A stretch of DNA of 39,565 nt from the sequence record MW722083.1. One strand, 5' to 3'. This document shows positions 2,542-24,761 of the stretch, piece by piece. The notes under the pieces were generated by a model that worked only from the letters and a program-made list of their open reading frames with translations, was not told the origin of the DNA and did no database searches. Source of the stretch: Escherichia phage vB_EcoP_ZX5. Every line of letters starts with the position of its first letter. Within the stretch, counting starts at the first letter, position 1. Both the position numbers and the translations under genes were made by a program.

Positions 2542-5500
2542 ATGACGGTCTCAACCGAAGTTGACCACAACGAATACACCGGTAACGGCGTTACGACATC
2601 GTTTCCGTATACTTTTCGAATTTTCAGAAAATCAGACCTGGTTGTTCAGGTGTCTGACCTGAACGGGAACGTAACAGAATTGGTTCTGGATACCGGTTAT
2701 ACGGTAACTGGGGCGGGCACTTATAGTGGCGGTTCTGTGGTTCTTCCGTCTCCGCTTGCTACTGGATGGCGAATTACGATAGATCGTGTGCTTGATGTAG
2801 TGCAGGAGACAGACCTTCGCAATCAGGGAAAATTTTTCCCCGAAGTGCATGAAGATGCCTTTGACTACCTGACGATGCTGATCCAGCAATGTTTTGGGTG
2901 GTTCAGACGTGCATTGATGAAACCATCTTTGCTTGCAAAATATTACGATGCAAAGCAAAACAAAATTTCTAACCTTGCAGATCCATCATTTGAGCAGGAC
3001 GCTGTAAATAATCGCTCAATGCGTAATTATGTCGATGCTGCAATCGCCGGGGTTGTTGGTGGTTTTGGTTGGTTTATTCAGTATGGTTCTGGGGCTGTGT
3101 ACCGAACGTTCCAGGATAAAATGCGTGATGCTATTAGCCCCAAAGATTTTGGAGCTGTTGGTGATGGTATAAATGACGATTCCACTGCAATAAGCGCGTG
3201 CCTTGAAGCCTCATCTCCAGGTTATAAAATTGACGGATTAGGGCTTACTTTTAAAGTATCAACTCTTCCGGATGTCAGTCGATTTAAAAATGCTCGTTTT
3301 TTATTTGAGAGAATACCGGGCCAGCCTCTTTTTTATGCTTCTGAAGATTTTATCCAGGGAGAGTTATTTAAAATTACAGATACACCGTGGTACAACGCCT
3401 GGACGCAGGATAAAACGTTTGTATATGACAATGTCATCTATGCGCCTTTTATGGCTGGAGACCGCCATGGTGTAAATAACCTCCATGTTGCATGGGTTCG
3501 CTCAGGAGATGACGGGAAGACCTGGACAACGCCGGAATGGCTTACAGATTTACATGAAAACTATCCCACAGTTAACTATCACTGTATGAGTATGGGGGTT
3601 GTCAGAAATCGCCTTTTTGCTGTAATTGAGACGCGGACCGTGAGAGGAAATAAACTGCAGGTTGCAGAGTTGTGGGATCGCCCAATGAGTCGCAGCCTTC
3701 GCGTTTATGGTGGTATAACGAAAGCAGCAAATCAGCAAGTCGCTTATATTCGCATTACTGATCACGGATTATTTGCTGGTGATTTTGTCAACTTCTCAAA
3801 CTCTGGTGTTACAGGTGTTACCGGGAATATGACGGTGACTACTGTTATTGATAAAAATACTTTTACAGTTACGACGCAAAATACCCAGGATGTGGATCAG
3901 AATAACGAGGGTAGATACTGGAGTTTTGGTACATCATTTCACTCGTCACCATGGAGAAAAACCAGTCTTGGAACTATTCCTTCTTTTGTTGACGGAAGCA
4001 CTCCTGTTACTGAGATTCACAGTTTTGCGACGATTAGCGATAACAGTTTTGCTGTTGGCTACCATAATGGTGATATTGGTCCACGCGAGCTTGGGATACT
4101 CTATTTCTCTGATGCTTTCGGTTCTCCTGGTAGCTTTGTTCGCAGACGCATACCTGCAGAATATGAGGCGAATGCATCTGAGCCATGTGTAAAATATTAT
4201 GATGGCATTCTGTATCTGACGACCAGGGGGACATTAAGTACTCAACCCGGTAGTTCATTGCACAGAAGCTCTGATTTAGGTACATCATGGAATTCTCTTC
4301 GCTTCCCAAATAATGTTCATCACTCAAACCTTCCTTTTGCCAAAGTTGGCGATGAGCTGATTATTTTTGGCAGTGAGCGCGCATTTGGTGAGTGGGAAGG
4401 AGGAGAACCTGATAACCGTTATGCAGGAAATTATCCAAGAACATTTATGACCAGAGTTAACGTCAATGAGTGGAGTCTGGATAATGTAGAGTGGGTTAAT
4501 GTTACTGATCAGATTTATCAGGGCGGAATAGTTAACTCTGCGGTTGGTGTTGGTTCAGTTTGTATCAAAGACAACTGGCTGTACTACATTTTCGGTGGGG
4601 AAGACTTTCTAAACCCATGGAGCATAGGGGATAACAACAGAAAATATCCTTATGTTCACGATGGTCACCCGGCTGATTTGTATTGTTTCAGGGTGAAAAT
4701 TAAACAGGAAGAATTTGTTTCAAGGGATTTTGTCTACGGAGCCACTCCTAACAGAACGCTTCCTACTTTTATGTCGACGTCAGGCGTGAGGACGGTTCCT
4801 GTACCCGTTGATTTCACAGATGATGTTGCCGTCCAGTCACTGACTGTCCATGCAGGTACATCAGGACAAGTTCGCGCGGAAGTCAAACTTGAGGGTAATT
4901 ACGCCATTATTGCGAAGAAAGTACCGTCTGATGATGTTACCGCTCAGAGATTAATCGTTAGCGGCGGTGAAACAACGTCTTCAGCAGATGGTGCAATGAT
5001 AACGTTGCATGGTTCCGGAAGCAGTACTCCACGTCGCGCGGTATATAACGCACTCGAACATCTTTTTGAGAACGGAGATGTTAAACCTTATCTTGATAAT
5101 GTAAATGCTCTTGGTGGTCCGGGAAACAGGTTCTCGACAGTTTATCTTGGCTCCAATCCTGTGGTTACCAGTGACGGAACATTAAAGACAGAGCCGGTCT
5201 CTCCTGACGAAGCATTGCTGGATGCCTGGGGTGACGTCAGGTATATCGCTTATAAATGGCTGAACGCTGTCGCTATAAAGGGGGAAGAAGGGGCGAGGAT
5301 ACATCATGGTGTAATCGCGCAGCAACTTCGTGATGTTCTTATTTCTCACGGACTCATGGAAGAAGAAAGCACAACATGCCGCTATGCCTTTCTTTGCTAT
5401 GACGATTATCCCGCAGTATATGATGACGTCATTACTGGCCAAAGGGAAATGCCGCTGACTGATAATGACGGGAGCATCATTGTTGATGAGGATGATAATC

Positions 5501-5661
5501 CAGTGATGGTAATGGAAGACATCATTGAGCGCGTTGAAATAACGCCAGCAGGATCTAGATGGGGGGTCAGACCTGATCTCTTATTCTATATCGAGGCAGC
5601 ATGGCAGCGCAGAGAAATGGATAAGATAAAAGAGCGGATTCAGTCTCTGGAAGAACGTTAA
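2542..5661 (+). CDS. tailspike: T7 gp17-like N-terminal anchor, pectate-lyase-like beta-helix signature, C-terminal S74-type intramolecular chaperone domain
   Basis: 1039-aa ORF with GGAGA SD; N-terminus GNGVTTSFPYTFRIFRKSDLVVQV; central DFGAVGDGINDDSTAI motif; C-terminal chaperone-like block. Confidence 0.85.
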   Translation: MTVSTEVDHNEYTGNGVTTSFPYTFRIFRKSDLVVQVSDLNGNVTELVLDTGYTVTGAGTYSGGSVVLPSPLATGWRITIDRVLDVVQETDLRNQGKFFPEVHEDAFDYLTMLIQQCFGWFRRALMKPSLLAKYYDAKQNKISNLADPSFEQDAVNNRSMRNYVDAAIAGVVGGFGWFIQYGSGAVYRTFQDKMRDAISPKDFGAVGDGINDDSTAISACLEASSPGYKIDGLGLTFKVSTLPDVSRFKNARFLFERIPGQPLFYASEDFIQGELFKITDTPWYNAWTQDKTFVYDNVIYAPFMAGDRHGVNNLHVAWVRSGDDGKTWTTPEWLTDLHENYPTVNYHCMSMGVVRNRLFAVIETRTVRGNKLQVAELWDRPMSRSLRVYGGITKAANQQVAYIRITDHGLFAGDFVNFSNSGVTGVTGNMTVTTVIDKNTFTVTTQNTQDVDQNNEGRYWSFGTSFHSSPWRKTSLGTIPSFVDGSTPVTEIHSFATISDNSFAVGYHNGDIGPRELGILYFSDAFGSPGSFVRRRIPAEYEANASEPCVKYYDGILYLTTRGTLSTQPGSSLHRSSDLGTSWNSLRFPNNVHHSNLPFAKVGDELIIFGSERAFGEWEGGEPDNRYAGNYPRTFMTRVNVNEWSLDNVEWVNVTDQIYQGGIVNSAVGVGSVCIKDNWLYYIFGGEDFLNPWSIGDNNRKYPYVHDGHPADLYCFRVKIKQEEFVSRDFVYGATPNRTLPTFMSTSGVRTVPVPVDFTDDVAVQSLTVHAGTSGQVRAEVKLEGNYAIIAKKVPSDDVTAQRLIVSGGETTSSADGAMITLHGSGSSTPRRAVYNALEHLFENGDVKPYLDNVNALGGPGNRFSTVYLGSNPVVTSDGTLKTEPVSPDEALLDAWGDVRYIAYKWLNAVAIKGEEGARIHHGVIAQQLRDVLISHGLMEEESTTCRYAFLCYDDYPAVYDDVITGQREMPLTDNDGSIIVDEDDNPVMVMEDIIERVEITPAGSRWGVRPDLLFYIEAAWQRREMDKIKERIQSLEER

Positions 5662-5687
5662 AAAAAAGCCCGCAATATTTTGCGGGT
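5661..5687. terminator. hairpin just after the tailspike stop (terminator-like; U-tract better on minus strand)
   Basis: 7-bp stem 5669-5675/5680-5686, loop TATT, preceded by A7. Confidence 0.4.
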
Positions 5688-5967
5688 ATCAAAAACGGAG
5701 TTGGTGAAAAGTTATCTTTGAATTCTATCATGAATCAGTACGTATTTTAAATACATGTTCAGGTTTATTACACCATAGCATTATTAAATACAAAATTAAG
5801 TCTATGGTTCCTGTACAACTGCCCCCACTCTGCTGGCTCGTTCTGTAAAATCATTAGTACTTTTATTGAGATATATGATATGGAACAATAATGATTCATA
5901 TATGGTTTACTATGCGGGTTTAGTCATCAATAATTGACTGGCTTATAGATAGTAAACAGGAGAAAGT

Positions 5968-6372
5968 ATGTCTGCTCAAGTAACAAGTGAGCAATTAAAT
6001 CAGTTGCTTAGTTTTGGTTCTCTTGCTGCGGTTATTGCAGGTGTCCCTCCGGAGGTTGCTTTAGGGGCTTTGGCTGGGGCGGTAATTTTTGTTACCTCTG
6101 CAGTAGAGTACCCCATCCGTCGCCGGGTGCTCCTGTCGATGCTCAGCTTTCTTTGCGGCCTTCTCTTTTACAAACCAGCAGCATCAATTCTTATCGGCAT
6201 AGCCAGCCTGATCCCTACCATCACGCAGGACTCTTTTGAAAAAGGGATTGTTTTCTCTGCAGGCGCATTCGTGTCAGCAATTGTCGCTGTGCGTATTGGT
6301 ATATGGCTCTATCACCGTTCCGATAATCCACGCGAGTTAATTCCGGGGAGAAAAGACGATGGTAACGCATGA
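5968..6372 (+). CDS. holin-like membrane protein (about 4 TM segments)
   Basis: 134-aa hydrophobic ORF with GGAGAAAG SD, immediately before the endolysin. Confidence 0.6.
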   Translation: MSAQVTSEQLNQLLSFGSLAAVIAGVPPEVALGALAGAVIFVTSAVEYPIRRRVLLSMLSFLCGLLFYKPAASILIGIASLIPTITQDSFEKGIVFSAGAFVSAIVAVRIGIWLYHRSDNPRELIPGRKDDGNA

Positions 6373-6667
6373 GTTTTTTTTGCTTATCACCAATGCAGTT
6401 ATTTGCACTGGCATAGCAATTCGCGTTGTCACATTCCGGCGTAACGGCTCTCAACATCGAAGGTGGGGAGGATGGCTTGCTTATTTCCTGATTGTTGCTG
6501 CGGCCAGTATTCCTGTTCGAGTCGCCTATGCAATCTGGTTACGTACGCCAATGGCTGTGGATTTATCTGAGGTCATTATCAACGCTGTCATGCTGGCTGC
6601 GGTTATTAAAACGCGCGGTAACGTCGTTCAAATTTTTAAAGTATCGAGGTCTAAACATGGAGATTAA
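6359..6667 (+). CDS. second holin/antiholin-like membrane protein (about 3 TM segments)
   Basis: 102-aa ORF with GGGGAGAAAA SD; overlaps upstream gene by 14 nt and endolysin by 11 nt. Confidence 0.5.
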
Positions 6668-7286
6668 ACAATTCCAGCGAGCTGCTGGTATCAGCGAGGC
6701 ACTGGCCGCACGCTGGTTCTCGCATATAACTTCTGCGATGAAAGAGTTTGGTATCAGCAAAGCAGAAGATCAGGCAATGTTTATTGCTCAAGTCGGGCAT
6801 GAGTCTGGGGGCTTCACCAGGTTGCAGGAGAATTTCAACTACAGTGTCAGCGGACTGGCTAACTTCGTTCGGGCTGGGCGTCTCACTCAGGGGCAGGCTA
6901 ATGCACTGGGGCGCCGTGCTGGTGAACCACCATTGCCACTTGAGCGCCAGCGCGCGATCGCAAATCTGGTATACAGCAAACGCATGGGGAACAATGCCCC
7001 TGGTGATGGCTGGAATTACCGAGGGCGCGGACTTATCCAGATTACCGGTTTGAATAACTATCGTGATTGCGGAAACGGTCTGAAGGTTGACCTGCTGGAG
7101 AGCCCTGAACTGCTGGCGCAGGACGGATATGCGGCTCGTAGCGCGGCGTGGTTCTTCGCCAGCAAAGGATGCATGAAGTATACCGGCGATATTGCACGTG
7201 TAACTCTGATTATCAATGGTGGCCGGAACGGCATCGACGACCGGCGAGCGCGGTACATCACTGCCAGTAAGGTGCTGGCGGTATGA
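6657..7286 (+). CDS. endolysin, glycoside hydrolase family 19 (chitinase-like) type
   Basis: 209 aa from ATG 6657 with GAGGT SD; motifs [12 protein letters not shown] and [12 protein letters not shown]; the track start 6492 is an unsupported 5' extension. Confidence 0.85.
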
Positions 7287-7765
7287 TCTGGGCATTCGTA
7301 AAAGCATACTGGAAACAGTTTCTTATCGTGGCAGTGCTTGCTGTTCTGGTCATATCAGGAGTGGTTGCCTGGAATATACACGGCAGTCGCCAGTACGATG
7401 CCGGGTATGCTCAGGCGGAAGAAGACCGCAAAGCCGAAGAAGACAAAGTTCGTCAGTACTACGAACAGGAGAAAGTGACCAATGAACGTGAAGCTCAGCA
7501 GAGGATCGACCAGGCGAGCAATGATGCTCTTGATGCTGCCGCTAGCGCTGGCCGGTTGCAGCAACAACTCTTTGCCATCCGTGAGCAGCTCAGGCAGTAT
7601 AACGCCATTGTCGGCGCTGGGTCGTCAGCCGCAGACACCGGAGTTTTGCTTGCCGACGTGCTCAGCAAATCTCTCGAGAGAAACAGACAACTGGCAGAGT
7701 ATGCTGACCGGGCAGCCGAAGCAGGAAGAGTCTGCGAAAAACAGTACGACACTTTGACCAGATAG
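7283..7765 (+). CDS. i-spanin (Rz-like), N-terminal TM plus coiled coil
   Basis: ATGA overlap with endolysin stop; N-terminal [20 protein letters not shown], charged periplasmic coiled coil. Confidence 0.75.
7521..7757 (+). CDS. o-spanin (Rz1-like lipoprotein) nested in the +1 frame of the i-spanin gene
   Basis: [13 protein letters not shown] lipobox, Pro-rich, wholly embedded in 7283..7765. Confidence 0.7.
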   Translation: MMLLMLPLALAGCSNNSLPSVSSSGSITPLSALGRQPQTPEFCLPTCSANLSRETDNWQSMLTGQPKQEESAKNSTTL

Positions 7766-7936
7766 CATGGCATTTTTCATGGTACTGATTTCCGGTGACG
7801 GTATATAAAACGGTACGGAAAAAATTGAGATTTGGAAAAATGTTATCACTCAATTGGTTATGGTTATCGTAAATAATTGAGTGGGAATGATTAACAGCTA
7901 ACTCATAGCAACTCATTCCTATTCAGATACTAATTT

Positions 7937-7969
7937 AACCCTCTGTTTTTACAGAGGGTTTTTGTTTTT
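7937..7969 (+). terminator. strong intrinsic terminator after the lysis cassette
   Basis: 10-bp stem AACCCTCTGT/ACAGAGGGTT, loop TTTT, followed by TTTGTTTTT. Confidence 0.75.
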
Positions 7970-8025
7970 ATGTATTCATTTCTATTCACTCTACACCATA
8001 TTTTTCGTCGGTACAGGTGACGGTA

Positions 8026-8040
8026 TTACCTTAAAGGTAT
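8026..8040. promoter_or_regulatory. palindromic operator-like site TTACCTTAAAGGTAT upstream of int
   Basis: one mismatch to TTACC-N5-GGTAA; abuts the second GGTGACGGTAT repeat. Confidence 0.35.
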
Positions 8041-8082
8041 ACTCTCATACCGTCATGAAAATGGTTTCTATACGGGTGAATT

Positions 8083-9333
8083 GTGCTTACCGATACAAAA
8101 TTAAAAAACCTCAAGCCGCAGGACAAACTGTACAAGGTCTCCGATCGTGACGGGCTGTATGTAGCTGTGCTTACGTCAGGTACGGTCTCGTTTCGCTATG
8201 ACTACCGTATCAACGGTCGCCGCGAAACACTGGTAATCGGGCAGTATGGGCGTGACGGTATCAGTCTGGCAGAAGCGCGAGAAGAACTGATTGCTGCAAA
8301 GAAGCTGCTTAAAGCAGGCCAGTCACCGGCTGCGGCTAAACGTGACGGTATCAAAAAGATTCGTGGTGCTGAGACGTTTGCGGTACATACCGACAGTTAT
8401 ATGAAACACGTCATCCTGGCTGACAGTACCCGCGCAATGAAGCAGGCGGTGATCGACCGTGACATACTTCCTGTTCTTGGCAACAAAATGATGGCTGAAA
8501 TTACCACATCGATGGTTCGTGATTTGTGTGACCGGATTGTCGAACGCGGTGGTCGGGCAACAGCAGTGCAGGCCAGGGAGATCATCAGCAGCGTATACCG
8601 TCACGCCAATGACCGTGGTCATGGTTTGTTTAATCCTGCGGCTGACATTAAACCTTCGTCTATCGCCATATTTAAACCACGAGAGCGAACACTGACACCA
8701 GAAGAAATTGGCCTGTTCTTCCGCACGCTGGATGCCATTGGTGCTATGGGCACTATGAAAATGGCTTTAAAGCTGGTGCTTATCACTATGGTTCGTAAAG
8801 GCGAATTCACCAATGCAACGTGGGACGAAATAGATTTTAAAAAATGGACATGGACAATTCCTTCAGACCGCATGAAGGGAAGCCGGGCGCACGTTATTTA
8901 CCTGCCTAAACAGGCACAGGATATATTGGTCGGGTTGCAGATGTGCGCTGGTGGAAGTGAATATCTGGTTCCTGGTCGTTACAACTTCCGGAAGCCATTA
9001 TCTAATGCCGCGCTGAACTCTCTGATCGACAGAACGGTGAAAATAATAAATGAAGATGGTGAGCATATTCAGGACTTCACTGTACATGATATGCGCCGTA
9101 CAGCCAGTACGTTGTTGCATGAGGCTGGTTATCCTTCAGACTGGATTGAAAAGGCTCTGGCACATGAGCAGAAAGGTGTGCGCGCCGTATATAACAAAGC
9201 GGAATACGCCAGACAGCGCGCCTACATGTTGCAGCAGTGGGCCGATATGATTGATTCCTGGATTAACGGGGAGCATACGGATCTGATTCCGTTCTCCCCG
9301 TCGAAGTTTGAGAAGTGGATGGCGGGGGAATAA
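8083..9333 (+). CDS. int: tyrosine integrase, P4-type
   Basis: 416-aa ORF with GTG start; N-terminus LTDTKLKNLKPQDKLYKVSDRDGLYVAV typical of P4-like integrases; C-terminal HxxR...Y catalytic region. Confidence 0.85.
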   Translation: MLTDTKLKNLKPQDKLYKVSDRDGLYVAVLTSGTVSFRYDYRINGRRETLVIGQYGRDGISLAEAREELIAAKKLLKAGQSPAAAKRDGIKKIRGAETFAVHTDSYMKHVILADSTRAMKQAVIDRDILPVLGNKMMAEITTSMVRDLCDRIVERGGRATAVQAREIISSVYRHANDRGHGLFNPAADIKPSSIAIFKPRERTLTPEEIGLFFRTLDAIGAMGTMKMALKLVLITMVRKGEFTNATWDEIDFKKWTWTIPSDRMKGSRAHVIYLPKQAQDILVGLQMCAGGSEYLVPGRYNFRKPLSNAALNSLIDRTVKIINEDGEHIQDFTVHDMRRTASTLLHEAGYPSDWIEKALAHEQKGVRAVYNKAEYARQRAYMLQQWADMIDSWINGEHTDLIPFSPSKFEKWMAGE

Positions 9334-19647: not shown

Positions 19648-20253
19648 ATGGTGGTTATGATGCCTGCTGAACCTAAAACCTATAAACGCAAATCAACGCA
19701 ATTTAAGCCACTAACAGCAATGCAGGAGGCTTATTGCCAGTCATACATCAAAACGCCTGAAAACCAGACTCAGGCAGCGATTAACGCAGGATTCTCTCCA
19801 AATACAGCGGCAGTTAAAGCCAGTGTCATGATGCGCGATGAACGCATTCAAAAACGGATTGCCGAGTTGATGGAGGAGCGCAACAAACGAATGCGCGTCA
19901 GTGCCGATTACGTTCTCATGCGCCTGGTGGAGATCGACCAGATGGACGTGATTGATATCCTCAACGACGATGGGAGCCTTAAGCCAATCCGCGAGTGGCC
20001 GAAAATCTGGCGCACTACGCTTAGCGGCTTTGATCTGTCATCGACCATCATGAACATGAACGAGGATTCGATAGAGACAATCCTCAAAAAAATTAAATGG
20101 CCTGACAAGGTGAAGAACCTCGAACTGATTGGTAAGCACGTCGACGTCAACGCATTCAAAGAACGCCTGGATGTTAATGTGAATGTGACAATTGCTGATC
20201 GCATAGCGGCAGCCAGGAAGCGACTCAAAGAACGTCAGGATGGTAATCAGTGA
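19648..20253 (+). CDS. terS: terminase small subunit
   Basis: 201 aa from ATG 19648; the track start 19579 would span a terminator and operator; position immediately before the large subunit. Confidence 0.7.
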   Translation: MVVMMPAEPKTYKRKSTQFKPLTAMQEAYCQSYIKTPENQTQAAINAGFSPNTAAVKASVMMRDERIQKRIAELMEERNKRMRVSADYVLMRLVEIDQMDVIDILNDDGSLKPIREWPKIWRTTLSGFDLSSTIMNMNEDSIETILKKIKWPDKVKNLELIGKHVDVNAFKERLDVNVNVTIADRIAAARKRLKERQDGNQ

Positions 20254-21725
20254 CAGATACAGCGTTATCTCCTGAAGAGCAGTTGATCGAGGATATTGCA
20301 GGGTTCACTCACGATCCGCTTGGTTATGCCCTCTATGCGTTCCCGTGGGGGGAAGAGGGGACTGAACTGGCACATGCTACCGGCCCACGTCAGTGGCAGG
20401 CTGATGCGTTCCGAGAGATACGTGATCACCTGCAGAATCCAGAGACGCGCTATCAGCCGCTTATGCTGGCACGCGCTTCTGGTCACGGTATTGGTAAATC
20501 CGCATTCATCTCAATGCTGATCAACTGGGGCATGTCCACTTGCGAGGATTGTAAGGTCGTGGTGACCGCCAACACCGACAACCAGCTACGAACGAAGACC
20601 TGGCCGGAAATTATCAAGTGGTCGAACCTTGCTATCACGAAAGACTGGTTTACCTGTACCGCTACCGCGATGTACAGCAATGATCCTGGACACGACAAGC
20701 GGTGGCGAGCTGACGCAATCCCCTGGTCTGAGCACAACACTGAGGCATTCGCCGGACTACACAACGAGCGCAAACGCATCATCGTGGTGTTTGATGAAGC
20801 GTCGAACATTGCGGATCTGGTGTGGGAAGTTGCCGAGGGTGCGCTTACGGACGAAGACACTGAGATTATTTGGGTGGCGTTCGGAAACCCTACACGTAAC
20901 ACCGGGCGTTTTCGCGAATGTTTCCGCAAATATAAACACCGCTGGAAAACTGCGCAGATTGACAGCCGGACGGTGGAAGGCACTAACAAACAGCAGTTGC
21001 AGAAATGGGTTGATGACTACGGGGAAGACAGCGACTTCGTTAAAATCCGTGTGCGTGGCATATTCCCTGATGCATCTGAATTGCAGTTTATCCCTACCGG
21101 TCTTACTGACGAGGCAATGAAACGGGTGGTAACCGCTGCGCAGGTTGCACATGCTCCGGTGATAATCGGCGTTGACCCGGCATACTCCGGCGTTGATGAC
21201 GCTGTGATATACCTGCGGCAGGGGCTACACAGTAAGGTGCTGTGGACTGGCAACAAGACTACCGACGATCTGATTATGGCGAAGCGTATCGCTGACTTTG
21301 AAGACCAGTATCAGGCTGACGCGGTGTTCATCGACTTCGGTTACGGAACCGGTTTGAAGTCAATCGGTGACGGCTGGGGTCGTACATGGCAACTTGTTCC
21401 GTTCGGTGGCGCGTCTACTGACCCGCAGATGCTCAACAAGCGTGGGGAGATGTTCAACTCATGCAAGACATGGCTGAGGCTCGGCGGCATGCTGGATGAC
21501 CAGGAAACAGCGGACGACCTGTCGGCAGCAGAGTACAAAGTTCGAGTGGACGGTAAAATCGTTATCGAACCGAAGGAAGATATCAAAGAGCGACTTGGGC
21601 GTTCTCCTGGTAAAGGCGATGCGCTACTGCTGACGTTTGCGTTCCCTGTGTCGAAGCGTCTGCGAATTCCCGGTCAGCAGAACCAGCAAGGCAAGGCCAT
21701 TACAGATTACGATCCCTATGCTTAA
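20250..21725 (+). CDS. terL: terminase large subunit
   Basis: 491 aa; Walker A-like GHGIGKS and nuclease region; GTG start overlapping the terS stop. Confidence 0.85.
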   Translation: MTDTALSPEEQLIEDIAGFTHDPLGYALYAFPWGEEGTELAHATGPRQWQADAFREIRDHLQNPETRYQPLMLARASGHGIGKSAFISMLINWGMSTCEDCKVVVTANTDNQLRTKTWPEIIKWSNLAITKDWFTCTATAMYSNDPGHDKRWRADAIPWSEHNTEAFAGLHNERKRIIVVFDEASNIADLVWEVAEGALTDEDTEIIWVAFGNPTRNTGRFRECFRKYKHRWKTAQIDSRTVEGTNKQQLQKWVDDYGEDSDFVKIRVRGIFPDASELQFIPTGLTDEAMKRVVTAAQVAHAPVIIGVDPAYSGVDDAVIYLRQGLHSKVLWTGNKTTDDLIMAKRIADFEDQYQADAVFIDFGYGTGLKSIGDGWGRTWQLVPFGGASTDPQMLNKRGEMFNSCKTWLRLGGMLDDQETADDLSAAEYKVRVDGKIVIEPKEDIKERLGRSPGKGDALLLTFAFPVSKRLRIPGQQNQQGKAITDYDPYA

Positions 21726-21815: not shown

Positions 21816-22154
21816 TTATTGCTCGCTTAACTTCTGCTTCAGCAAGTAACCTTCAAGCATCCAGATTTTGTTTACAGCATTCTGCCGGGCAATCTTCCGA
21901 CCAATTTCCGCATCAAAGTTTTCTGGGCTTGCACAGGCGCTCTCTCCGGTGACGGTGAAGCCATTTTGTAGAGTTAATACACAAAATGTCAGCAGAGCCA
22001 AACTGTCGTGATAGTCATCGCCAGTTGCAATAGCTCCATCAGCAGCAGTGAAGTACGTTTCCGCAAGAATAATGCTTTCGATATGGTCTGGCGTAACGCG
22101 CGGGGCGGCTAAACCTTTAGCCTGAATTTCAGATTCAATGTCTTTGTCACTCAT
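21816..22154 (-). CDS. hypothetical protein (possibly N4 gp49 / Sf6 gene 66 family), minus-strand moron in the late region
   Basis: 112 aa with AAGGTGA SD; family guess from recollection only. Confidence 0.5.
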   Translation of the reverse strand: MSDKDIESEIQAKGLAAPRVTPDHIESIILAETYFTAADGAIATGDDYHDSLALLTFCVLTLQNGFTVTGESACASPENFDAEIGRKIARQNAVNKIWMLEGYLLKQKLSEQ

Positions 22155-22356: not shown

Positions 22357-22433
22357 TGGCGTGGCATGCAGGATTCGAACCTGCGACCAACCGCTTAGAA
22401 GGCGGTTGCTCTGTCCAGCTGAGCTAATGCCAC
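22357..22433 (-). tRNA. tRNA-Arg (anticodon UCU), CCA encoded
   Basis: 77 nt; acceptor GTGGCAT/ATGCCAC, D-arm GCTC...GAGC, anticodon arm ACCGC-CTTCTAA-GCGGT, T-arm GCAGG-TTCGAAT-CCTGC, discriminator G, CCA. Confidence 0.85.
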
Positions 22434-23081: not shown

Positions 23082-24761
23082 ATGGCGGAAACAACTAAAG
23101 AGCGATTGAACAAACAGTTCGCACAACTTGAAAGCGAGCGTCAGTCGTTCGAGCCGCACTGGCGCGAGTTGAGTGATTACATCAACCCGCGTGGTTCCCG
23201 CTTTCTGACTTCTGAGGTTAACCGTAACGATCGACGCAATACACGCATTATTGATTCGACCGGGACTATGGCGGCGCGCACTCTCGCCAGCGGCATGATG
23301 TCAGGCATCACAAGCCCCGCGCGTCCGTGGTTTCGCCTGGCTACGCCAGATCCTGAAATGATGGATTATGGCCCTGTTAAGTTGTGGCTTGAGGCGGTGC
23401 AGAACCGCATGAACGATATGTTCAATAAGTCGAATCTCTATCAGTCGCTGCCGCAGTTATACGGAAGCCTCGGCACATACAGCACTGGTGCAATGGCAGT
23501 GCTGGAGGATGACGAGGACATCATTCGCACAATGCCATTCCCGATAGGCAGTTACTACCTGGCTAACTCACCTCGTGGCAGTGTGGACACCTGTTTTCGC
23601 AAGTTCTCTATGACTGTTCGTCAGCTTGTTCAGGAGTTCGGGCTAAATAACGTCAGCGAATCCGTAAAAAGCATGTGGGAAAGCGGAACCTACGAGAAGT
23701 GGATTGAAGTGATGCATTCGGTTTACCCGAACATTGACCGCGATACATCGAAGCTGGATAGCAAGAACAAGCCATTCAAATCGGTTTATTACGAGGTTGG
23801 TGGCGATAACGACAAGTTGTTGCGTGAGTCCGGATTCGATGAGTTTCCAATTATGGCTCCGCGCTGGGAAGTTAACGGCGAAGATGTTTATGGATCATCA
23901 TGCCCGGGTATGCTGGCGCTTGGACCTGTTAAGGCATTGCAGCTTCTCCAGAAGCGCAAGTCGCAGTTGATTGATAAAGCCACCAATCCGCCGATGGTTG
24001 CTCCGACTTCCCTCAAGAATCAGCGTGCCTCCCTTCTTCCTGGCGACATCACGTATATCGATCAGATTACTGGTCAGGATGGTTTCAGGCCTGCTTATCT
24101 GGTTAACCCCAGTACAGCAGATTTGGTGGCAGACATTCAGGACACCCGTCAAATCATTAACAGCGCCTACTTTGTCGATCTGTTCATGATGTTGCAGAAC
24201 ATCAATACCCGCTCGATGCCTGTTGAAGCGGTGATCGAAATGAAAGAAGAAAAACTTCTGATGTTGGGGCCGGTTCTGGAGCGTCTGAACGACGAATGTC
24301 TTAATCCTCTCATTGACCGCGCTTTCTCGATGATGGTGCGTAAAAACATGCTGCCGCCACCGCCTGACGCGATGGAAGGTATGCCCCTGAAGGTCGAATA
24401 CATTTCCGTCATGGCTCAGGCGCAGAAGTCTATCGGCCTGTCCAGTCTGGCGTCTACGGTCAACTTCATTGGTCAACTTGCGCAAGCGAAACCAGAAGCT
24501 CTCGACAAACTCAACGTTGATCAGGCGATCGATGCATTCGCTGATATGTCCGGAGTGTCTCCAACCGTCATTGTTCCGCAGGAACAGGTTGAGCAGGCTC
24601 GCCAGCAACGGGCACAGCAACAACAGCAGCAACAAATGATGGCGATGGGGATGGCGGCGGCACAGGGTGCCAAGACGCTAAGCGAAGCTAAAACTTCGGA
24701 TCCGAGTGTTTTGTCAGCTATGGCGAATGCAGTTAGTGGTCAGGGTGGGCAATCACAATGA
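23082..24761 (+). CDS. portal (head-to-tail connector), T7 gp8-like
   Basis: 559 aa; Gln/Ala/Met-rich C-terminus as in T7 gp8 as recalled. Confidence 0.85.
   Translation: MAETTKERLNKQFAQLESERQSFEPHWRELSDYINPRGSRFLTSEVNRNDRRNTRIIDSTGTMAARTLASGMMSGITSPARPWFRLATPDPEMMDYGPVKLWLEAVQNRMNDMFNKSNLYQSLPQLYGSLGTYSTGAMAVLEDDEDIIRTMPFPIGSYYLANSPRGSVDTCFRKFSMTVRQLVQEFGLNNVSESVKSMWESGTYEKWIEVMHSVYPNIDRDTSKLDSKNKPFKSVYYEVGGDNDKLLRESGFDEFPIMAPRWEVNGEDVYGSSCPGMLALGPVKALQLLQKRKSQLIDKATNPPMVAPTSLKNQRASLLPGDITYIDQITGQDGFRPAYLVNPSTADLVADIQDTRQIINSAYFVDLFMMLQNINTRSMPVEAVIEMKEEKLLMLGPVLERLNDECLNPLIDRAFSMMVRKNMLPPPPDAMEGMPLKVEYISVMAQAQKSIGLSSLASTVNFIGQLAQAKPEALDKLNVDQAIDAFADMSGVSPTVIVPQEQVEQARQQRAQQQQQQQMMAMGMAAAQGAKTLSEAKTSDPSVLSAMANAVSGQGGQSQ

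Follow-up and report, generated by a model that had tools for sequence, protein, structure and literature searches.

Between the tailspike gene and the integrase gene of Escherichia phage vB_EcoP_ZX5 lies a cluster of five short genes, two of which encode small membrane proteins. The locus raises the question of whether this cluster is a lysis cassette, whether its position in the genome is out of the ordinary, and which of the two membrane proteins would open the inner membrane to the endolysin. The question was evaluated in the window, that is, the whole stretch of 39,565 nucleotides that was analyzed (sequence record MW722083.1).

Phage vB_EcoP_ZX5 (hereafter ZX5) is a temperate E. coli podophage of the genus Uetakevirus (ZX5 paper), and it is very probable that the five genes make up a canonical lysis module, working in three steps, as in epsilon15-like (Uetakevirus) temperate podophages. 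The position of the cassette and the presence of two holin-like genes are standard for this genus and were already known, and the cassette, with the exception of the embedded Rz1 gene, is already annotated in the published ZX5 genome. The finding rediscovers the documented epsilon15-like genome layout and a gene pair annotated since 2007-2010, and it matters little. What deserves more discussion is the division of labor between the two membrane proteins, which are called mp1 and mp2 here.

Gene content and expression of the cassette

The features of the region and of its flanks are as follows.

2542..5661, + strand: tailspike gene (context; ORF7), 1039 aa, epsilon15-type N-terminal adaptor, K1 endosialidase and intramolecular chaperone; matches Pfam End_beta_propel (E=6.5e-233), End_tail_spike and Peptidase_S74, and PHROG 1171 over its full length
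5662..5967, no strand: spacer of 306 bp, AT-rich, between the tailspike and lysis genes
5968..6372, + strand: mp1, 134 aa, PF16931 (Phage_holin_8), homologue of epsilon15 gp23, upstream partner of the pair
6359..6667, + strand: mp2, 102 aa, PF05449 (Phage_holin_3_7, formerly DUF754), homologue of epsilon15 gp24
6657..7286, + strand: endolysin, 209 aa, soluble, GH19-type
7283..7765, + strand: Rz, i-spanin, 160 aa, a single TM helix at the N-terminus and then a charged periplasmic domain
7482..7757, + strand: Rz1, o-spanin lipoprotein, 91 aa, entirely within Rz and read in the +1 frame; its signal peptide ends in the lipobox LAGC
7766..7892, no strand: interval containing attP, from prophage junctions; the sequence shared by the phage and its integrated copies runs up to 7892
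7937..7960, + strand: Rho-independent terminator of the tailspike-lysis unit, with a 10-bp stem and a T-run after it, situated beyond the attP crossover toward int
8083..9333, + strand: tyrosine integrase gene (context; ORF12); matches Pfam Arm-DNA-bind_3, Phage_int_M and Phage_integrase, and PHROG 1

The five open reading frames, all on the + strand, were recovered at these coordinates by ORF listing and translation, as the preliminary description had given them. Each is preceded by a Shine-Dalgarno sequence (AGGAG in the case of mp1), and strong profile matches and hundreds of homologues indicate that they are not chance ORFs. The genes are tightly packed, with overlaps of 14 nt between mp1 and mp2, 11 nt between mp2 and the endolysin gene, and an ATGA overlap between the endolysin gene and Rz. 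Within the spacer at 5662-5967, a sequence scan picked up a hairpin (5669-5686) and weak promoter-like sites (5866-5934), and neither Rfam nor PADLOC gave a match in the region or its spacer.

The 13-nt sequence AACAGGAGAAAGT is repeated at the ribosome-binding sites of mp1 and Rz1. Conservation of the mp1 copy does not extend to phiV10 and epsilon15, and the repeat was therefore treated as a coincidence of two strong Shine-Dalgarno regions.

[quoted passage not shown] Rz1 is missing from that table, in which ORF12 comes straight after ORF11, and a small use of the present analysis is that it draws attention to this embedded o-spanin gene.

The 'holin' qPCR primers of the ZX5 paper map once each in the window, at 6410-6429 and 6588-6607, which yields the 198-bp amplicon given there; the gene measured as 'holin' is mp2 (ORF9). 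Overexpression of the repressor was reported to decrease the transcription of ORF9 by 99.97% and that of ORF10, the endolysin gene, by 99.99% (ZX5 paper), and these decreases fit lytic-cycle expression of the cassette.

Protein families and membrane topology

The preliminary description had read the cluster as two holin-like membrane-protein genes, a GH19-type endolysin gene and nested spanin genes, and the profile matches bear this out. The endolysin could be aligned end to end with the SPN1S endolysin (PDB 4OK7; E=8e-115), both being 209-aa, two-module, GH19-type enzymes that differ by scattered substitutions only, and it matched Pfam Glyco_hydro_19 (PF00182) with 36.1 bits against a cut-off of 25.5, as well as PHROG 181. 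No SAR or signal segment was found, in that no 19-residue window of the whole protein had a Kyte-Doolittle mean of 1.5 or more. Because it has no hydrophobic N-terminus, the endolysin is expected to be cytoplasmic and to need a hole-forming holin.

Rz matched Pfam DUF2514 (148.5 bits) and PHROG 312, a family of Rz-like spanins (E=1.5e-59), and has its TM segment at about residues 12-32, whereas Rz1 matched PHROG 11621 (E=1.7e-40). An N-terminal TM segment in Rz, a lipobox in Rz1 and the location of the Rz1 gene within the Rz gene are together the marks of an embedded two-component spanin. Rz1 is annotated in epsilon15 and phiV10, and the spanins of these two phages have been catalogued in the Bcep176 embedded spanin family (Kongari et al. 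2018).

Both mp1 and mp2 are small proteins with several hydrophobic segments, the mp2 gene overlaps that of mp1 at one end and that of the endolysin at the other, and the NCBIfam matches of both proteins consisted of sub-threshold noise only. The match of mp2 to PF05449 is full-length and scores 94.2 bits (cut-off 25.4), and that to PHROG 217, a holin family, has E=1.5e-35; among non-lysis families in Pfam (E <= 0.1), there was only a sub-threshold, 19-residue match to SMR. Three hydrophobic segments are seen in the hydropathy profile of mp2, and in the family alignment the first of them is succeeded by a basic loop, F-R-x-G-x-x-H-R, that is conserved. The third segment is followed by a conserved RGNV motif and then by a basic tail (residues 84-102) with K84, R86, K94, R97 and K99 and a single acidic residue, D102. 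As judged from the sequence, these features likely fit the class-I holin pattern of three TM segments in an N-out/C-in arrangement. No dual-start motif was seen in mp2, and a partner would therefore be encoded by a separate upstream gene.

The match of mp1 to PF16931 covers residues 15-120 with 45.0 bits (gathering cut-off 26.4; E=1.4e-11) and is weaker than those of other family members, and mp1 also matched PHROG 198, a holin family, with E=5.6e-41. The tail of mp1 (residues 116-134) is charged, with a net charge of zero. An AlphaFold2 model of mp1 made with 18 family members (mean pLDDT 71) has helices at residues 7-24, 28-44, 50-66, 68-79 and 92-119, four of which are only 12-18 residues long, and at this moderate confidence the predicted fold is a pair of short helical hairpins and then a single long helix. 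In the PF16931 family as a whole, strong hydrophobic cores are seen at about residues 28-47, 54-73 and 88-108, and a further, weaker one near the N-terminus, and it is because of these three strong cores and one weak core that both three-TM and four-TM predictions are found in the literature (Lynch et al. 2010). The four TM segments that the preliminary description had assigned to mp1 are thus kept as one plausible reading, next to the five helices of AlphaFold2 and the published family predictions of three or four. A Hessa-type, position-independent free-energy scan for TM counts was set aside, as it gave inconsistent results across the family and failed on a lambda S control.

Position in the genome and relation to other Uetakevirus phages

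The location of the cassette between the tailspike gene and attP/int, as given in the preliminary description, was confirmed by the flanking genes at 2542-5661 and 8083-9333 and by the mapping of attP from prophage junctions. The further claim that this location is unusual holds in comparison with lambda and P22, but within its own genus (epsilon15, phiV10, SPN1S) the location is the normal one. In the RefSeq records of phiV10 and epsilon15, the tail fiber or spike gene is succeeded by those of the membrane protein, the holin and the endolysin, then by Rz with Rz1 embedded in it, the terminator and the integrase gene.

A megablast search with positions 5662-8082 matched 61 phage records. Over 87% of this 2.4-kb query, which takes in the cassette and the attP region, the identity was 90.4% for phiV10 and 82.1% for epsilon15; epsilon15, phiV10, SPN1S, TL-2011b and others have the same gene order with 82-94% nucleotide identity, and about 35 phage records besides epsilon15 and phiV10 carry the same cassette. 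The five genes, their order and their overlaps in epsilon15 (gp23-gp26 and Rz1) and phiV10 (p27-p30a) are the same as in ZX5, the cassette likewise has the tailspike region on one side and attP/int on the other, and the terminator is equally far downstream. The proteins of these two phages are 92% (mp1) and 81-84% (mp2) identical to those of ZX5. They differ from ZX5 in the interval between the tailspike and mp1, which holds serotype-conversion genes on the opposite strand (oac in phiV10, and the O-antigen polymerase gene together with that of its inhibitor in epsilon15), whereas in ZX5 this conversion slot is empty, the cassette directly follows the tailspike gene, and the tailspike is a K1 endosialidase.

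The attP site was mapped by comparing the ZX5 genome with 80 integrated prophage copies from IMG/VR. The search with the narrower mp2 alignment had yielded near-identical, epsilon15-like prophages only, which served to map attP but do not bear on whether PF05449 ever stands alone. In 58 of these 80 loci the homology to ZX5 stops at 7892, and in 6 more at 7886-7888; the DNA beyond 7892 is host yfgH/yfgI. Integration next to guaA was reported in the ZX5 paper. The phage-host junction was found in 544 of 5,426 complete E. coli genomes. At the other end, the homology to most prophage loci starts at 5943-5996, just before the mp1 start codon, and the lysis module is thus a conserved block beside a variable receptor-binding/conversion block.

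Distribution and possible roles of the two membrane proteins

In tblastn searches, mp2 matched 228 phage records from many hosts, whereas mp1 matched 36, nearly all of them epsilon15-like. Ten divergent annotated phages found through mp2 were inspected, namely Hafnia phage yong2 and E. coli phage HK639 (lambdoid), Proteus phage Brookers (P22-like), Burkholderia phage Mana, Ralstonia phage RSA1 and Shewanella phage M16-3 (P2-like), Pseudomonas phage YMC11/02/R656, Edwardsiella phage EPP-1, Klebsiella phage Seifer (Casjensviridae) and Salmonella phage FSL SP-058 (N4-like). In all ten, a PF16931 gene is directly upstream of the PF05449 gene and the endolysin gene comes next, and this is also the arrangement in phiCTX, the orf9/orf10 of which were taken by accession and not through the mp2 search. 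The converse search of IMG/VR with the PF16931 profile gave PF05449 directly downstream in 76 of 80 loci (20 of 22 clusters at 80% identity). PF16931 was without PF05449 in three P2-like prophage loci (2 of the 22 clusters), where it has gene X upstream, has an ATGA overlap with the gene of a signal-less muramidase, and is followed after the latter by Rz/Rz1, R and S, with no second multi-span protein in the cassette.

The endolysins encoded after the pair belong to five families (PF11860 muramidase with or without PG_binding_1, GH19, GH108 with PG_binding_3, GH24 and M15 peptidase), and such mosaicism is what a holin module would be expected to show. The lambdoid phages HK639 and yong2 have the same pair and a GH19 endolysin 61-63% identical to that of ZX5, but at the classical lambdoid site, after the Q antiterminator gene and before the packaging genes. 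The same overlapping pair precedes the endolysin gene and Rz/Rz1-type spanin genes in the P2-like phages KS5, KS14, KL3 and Mana of Burkholderia, RSA1 of Ralstonia and phiCTX of Pseudomonas. These phages differ from ZX5 in that they are myoviruses, their cassette lies between tail gene X and the tail-completion genes R and S, a PF11860 muramidase carrying a PG-binding domain takes the place of the GH19 endolysin, and the identity to mp1 and mp2 is about 25-40%. On these sequence comparisons, the distribution of the pair is as expected of a holin module and not of an envelope-modifying factor.

Published annotations of the two families are in line with such a module. Homologues of mp1 are called 'membrane protein' in ZX5, epsilon15 and phiV10 and 'putative antiholin' in P2-like Burkholderia phages, the usual annotation of such proteins being putative antiholin or second holin. 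In KS5, KS14 and KL3, the DUF754 gene was designated the holin gene, with three TM segments, and the upstream gene a 'putative antiholin' gene, with three or four (Lynch et al. 2010); annotations from Texas A&M have 'holin or antiholin class I' for both genes of Mana and 'hypothetical Holin-antiholin' for both genes of Seifer. The Pfam names of both families contain the word 'putative', and our literature search found no experiment on PF16931 or PF05449, so that for a pair which is very widespread the role labels in databases rest on gene position alone. A candidate link between PF16931 (phiCTX orf9) and the validated pyocin holin Hol of P. aeruginosa (PA0614) could not be established and was not used: in a homologue search from orf9 the matches were at prophage level only, on no more than 37 contigs, and the near-universal distribution expected of PA0614 was not seen.

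Our tentative preference is for mp2 as the holin and mp1 as an antiholin or co-holin. The points in favor of mp2 as the hole-former are its three hydrophobic segments, the basic loop, the RGNV motif with the basic tail, and the overlap of its gene with the endolysin gene. The identity, order, homology and lytic-cycle transcription of the genes are shown, whereas hole formation, the roles within the pair and the membrane topology are inferred. The cassette is transcribed with the tailspike gene during the lytic cycle, and mp1 and mp2, from overlapping and presumably translationally coupled genes, would build up in the inner membrane and determine when lysis occurs. Upon triggering, large holes would form, through which the cytoplasmic, signal-less GH19 endolysin could reach the peptidoglycan, and the embedded Rz/Rz1 spanin pair would then disrupt the outer membrane. 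The main hole-former would be mp2, whose three TM segments are probably arranged N-out/C-in and whose C-terminal tail is basic, and mp1 would be an antiholin or co-holin partner that tunes the timing. The same logic, in which a three-TM, class-I-like holin and its membrane antagonist act together with a soluble endolysin and two spanin components, is found with lambda S105/S107 and P2 Y/LysA, which have no detectable sequence relationship to the ZX5 pair. The absence of a net positive charge from the C-terminal tail of mp1 and the differing span counts predicted for mp1 count against this reading, and, since PF16931 must itself be the holin in the loci that have PF16931 only, these loci argue against a purely inhibitory mp1.

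The reverse assignment, with mp1 (PF16931) as the hole-forming holin and mp2 (PF05449) as a regulator or antiholin, is a possibility that we regard as rather unlikely. It draws on the fact that PF16931 alone is the only multi-span protein of an otherwise complete cassette in the three P2-like loci, whereas every PF05449 gene in the 11 divergent phages that were inspected, a small and non-exhaustive sample, had a PF16931 gene upstream of it. However, it is mp2 that is more holin-like in its three TM segments and strongly basic cytoplasmic tail, and it is the mp2 gene that abuts and overlaps the endolysin gene. Furthermore, an antiholin may also be a latent holin, as is the case with lambda S107. 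If the roles were in fact reversed, the labels in many phage genomes would be swapped, and the pair would represent an uncharacterized kind of holin-antiholin system.

Less probable still is an obligate two-component holin, in which the heteromer would be active and neither protein would make holes alone. Such holins have been proposed for some holin pairs of Bacillus phages, and the tight pairing of the two genes, widely conserved in many phage families, and their overlapping coding regions, which suggest translational coupling, are in keeping with this arrangement, but the cassettes that have PF16931 only speak against it.

The proposal in the preliminary description that mp1 might be an envelope-modifying factor was not supported, as mp1 matched no non-lysis family in Pfam (E <= 0.1). 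The check suggested there, for a match of either membrane protein to a non-lysis family such as a GtrA-like flippase, came out negative in Pfam, NCBIfam and PADLOC, with sub-threshold matches at most. A role of mp1 in envelope modification or superinfection exclusion beside the lysis genes is highly improbable: although epsilon15 and phiV10 carry serotype-conversion genes in the neighborhood of mp1, and the PF16931 match of mp1 is a comparatively weak one, there was no match to GtrA, acyltransferase, O-antigen or defense families, the conversion genes of the relatives are on the opposite strand and have been replaced independently of mp1, with the homology breakpoints just upstream of it, and homologues of mp1 are found at the place of the holin in phages devoid of a conversion module and lie directly before endolysin genes in unrelated phage types.

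Boundaries of the lysis module

The lysis block, which consists of the two membrane protein genes mp1 and mp2, the endolysin gene, and Rz/Rz1, is a conserved module, and the flanking tailspike/conversion module is swappable. In a comparison of 80 related prophages, homology breakpoints were found to be clustered at 5943-5996, just 5′ of the mp1 start codon, with a second cluster at 7892, which is the attP crossover. The endosialidase tailspike was also common to 18 loci among these prophages.

The terminator of the tailspike-lysis unit (7937-7960) is located beyond the attP crossover (7892), towards the integrase gene. Therefore, the lysis genes of the prophage are cut off from their own terminator and adjoin the host yfgH/yfgI genes, a junction that was found in 544 of 5,426 complete E. 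coli genomes (about 10%).

Spacer, embedded o-spanin gene, and a repeated 13-mer

5662-5967: AT-rich spacer of 306 bp between the tailspike and lysis genes
7482-7757, plus strand: embedded o-spanin (Rz1) gene, lipobox LAGC

The interval between the tailspike and lysis genes contains genes for serotype conversion in both relatives, namely O-antigen polymerase and inhibitor genes in epsilon15 and an O-acetyltransferase gene in phiV10, whereas in vB_EcoP_ZX5, which has a K1 endosialidase, it consists of the spacer only. A hairpin within this spacer (5669-5686), with a T-run on the minus strand, is possibly the relict terminator of a minus-strand gene that has since been lost.

The o-spanin gene is annotated in the epsilon15 and phiV10 records but is omitted from the published vB_EcoP_ZX5 ORF table, in which no entry separates ORF11 (Rz) from ORF12 (integrase). 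The 13-mer AACAGGAGAAAGT is present in exactly two copies in the genome (5955-5967 and 7464-7476), the first at the ribosome-binding site of mp1 and the second at that of Rz1. Because neither phiV10 nor epsilon15 shows conservation of the mp1 copy, this pair is probably a chance likeness of two strong Shine-Dalgarno regions.

PF16931 proteins in other contexts

Three P2-like prophages in IMG/VR (L045, L052, and L055, at about 3001-4500) were found to have a lysis cassette that encodes a PF16931 protein, the family of mp1, without a PF05449 partner, the family of mp2. The gene order in these loci is X, PF16931, a 199-aa muramidase, Rz/Rz1, R, and S. These PF16931-only cassettes suggest that a PF16931 protein is able to serve as the sole holin. 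In some assemblies, PF16931 and PF05449 are present in one ORF encoding a protein of 232 aa (P0013), the first part of which is 98% identical to mp1; this ORF most likely results from a frameshift or an assembly artefact joining the two overlapping genes.

A tRNA-Arg gene in the late operon

20250-21725: large terminase gene, the 5′ neighbour of the gap containing the tRNA-Arg gene
21816-22154, minus strand: 112-aa ORF, adjoining the tRNA-Arg gene
22357-22433, minus strand: tRNA-Arg gene, anticodon TCT, in the gap that separates the large terminase gene from the 559-aa ORF
23082-24761: 559-aa ORF following the large terminase gene and gap, which we take, by position, to be a putative portal gene

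The tRNA-Arg gene together with the 112-aa ORF looks like a small island inserted within the late operon.
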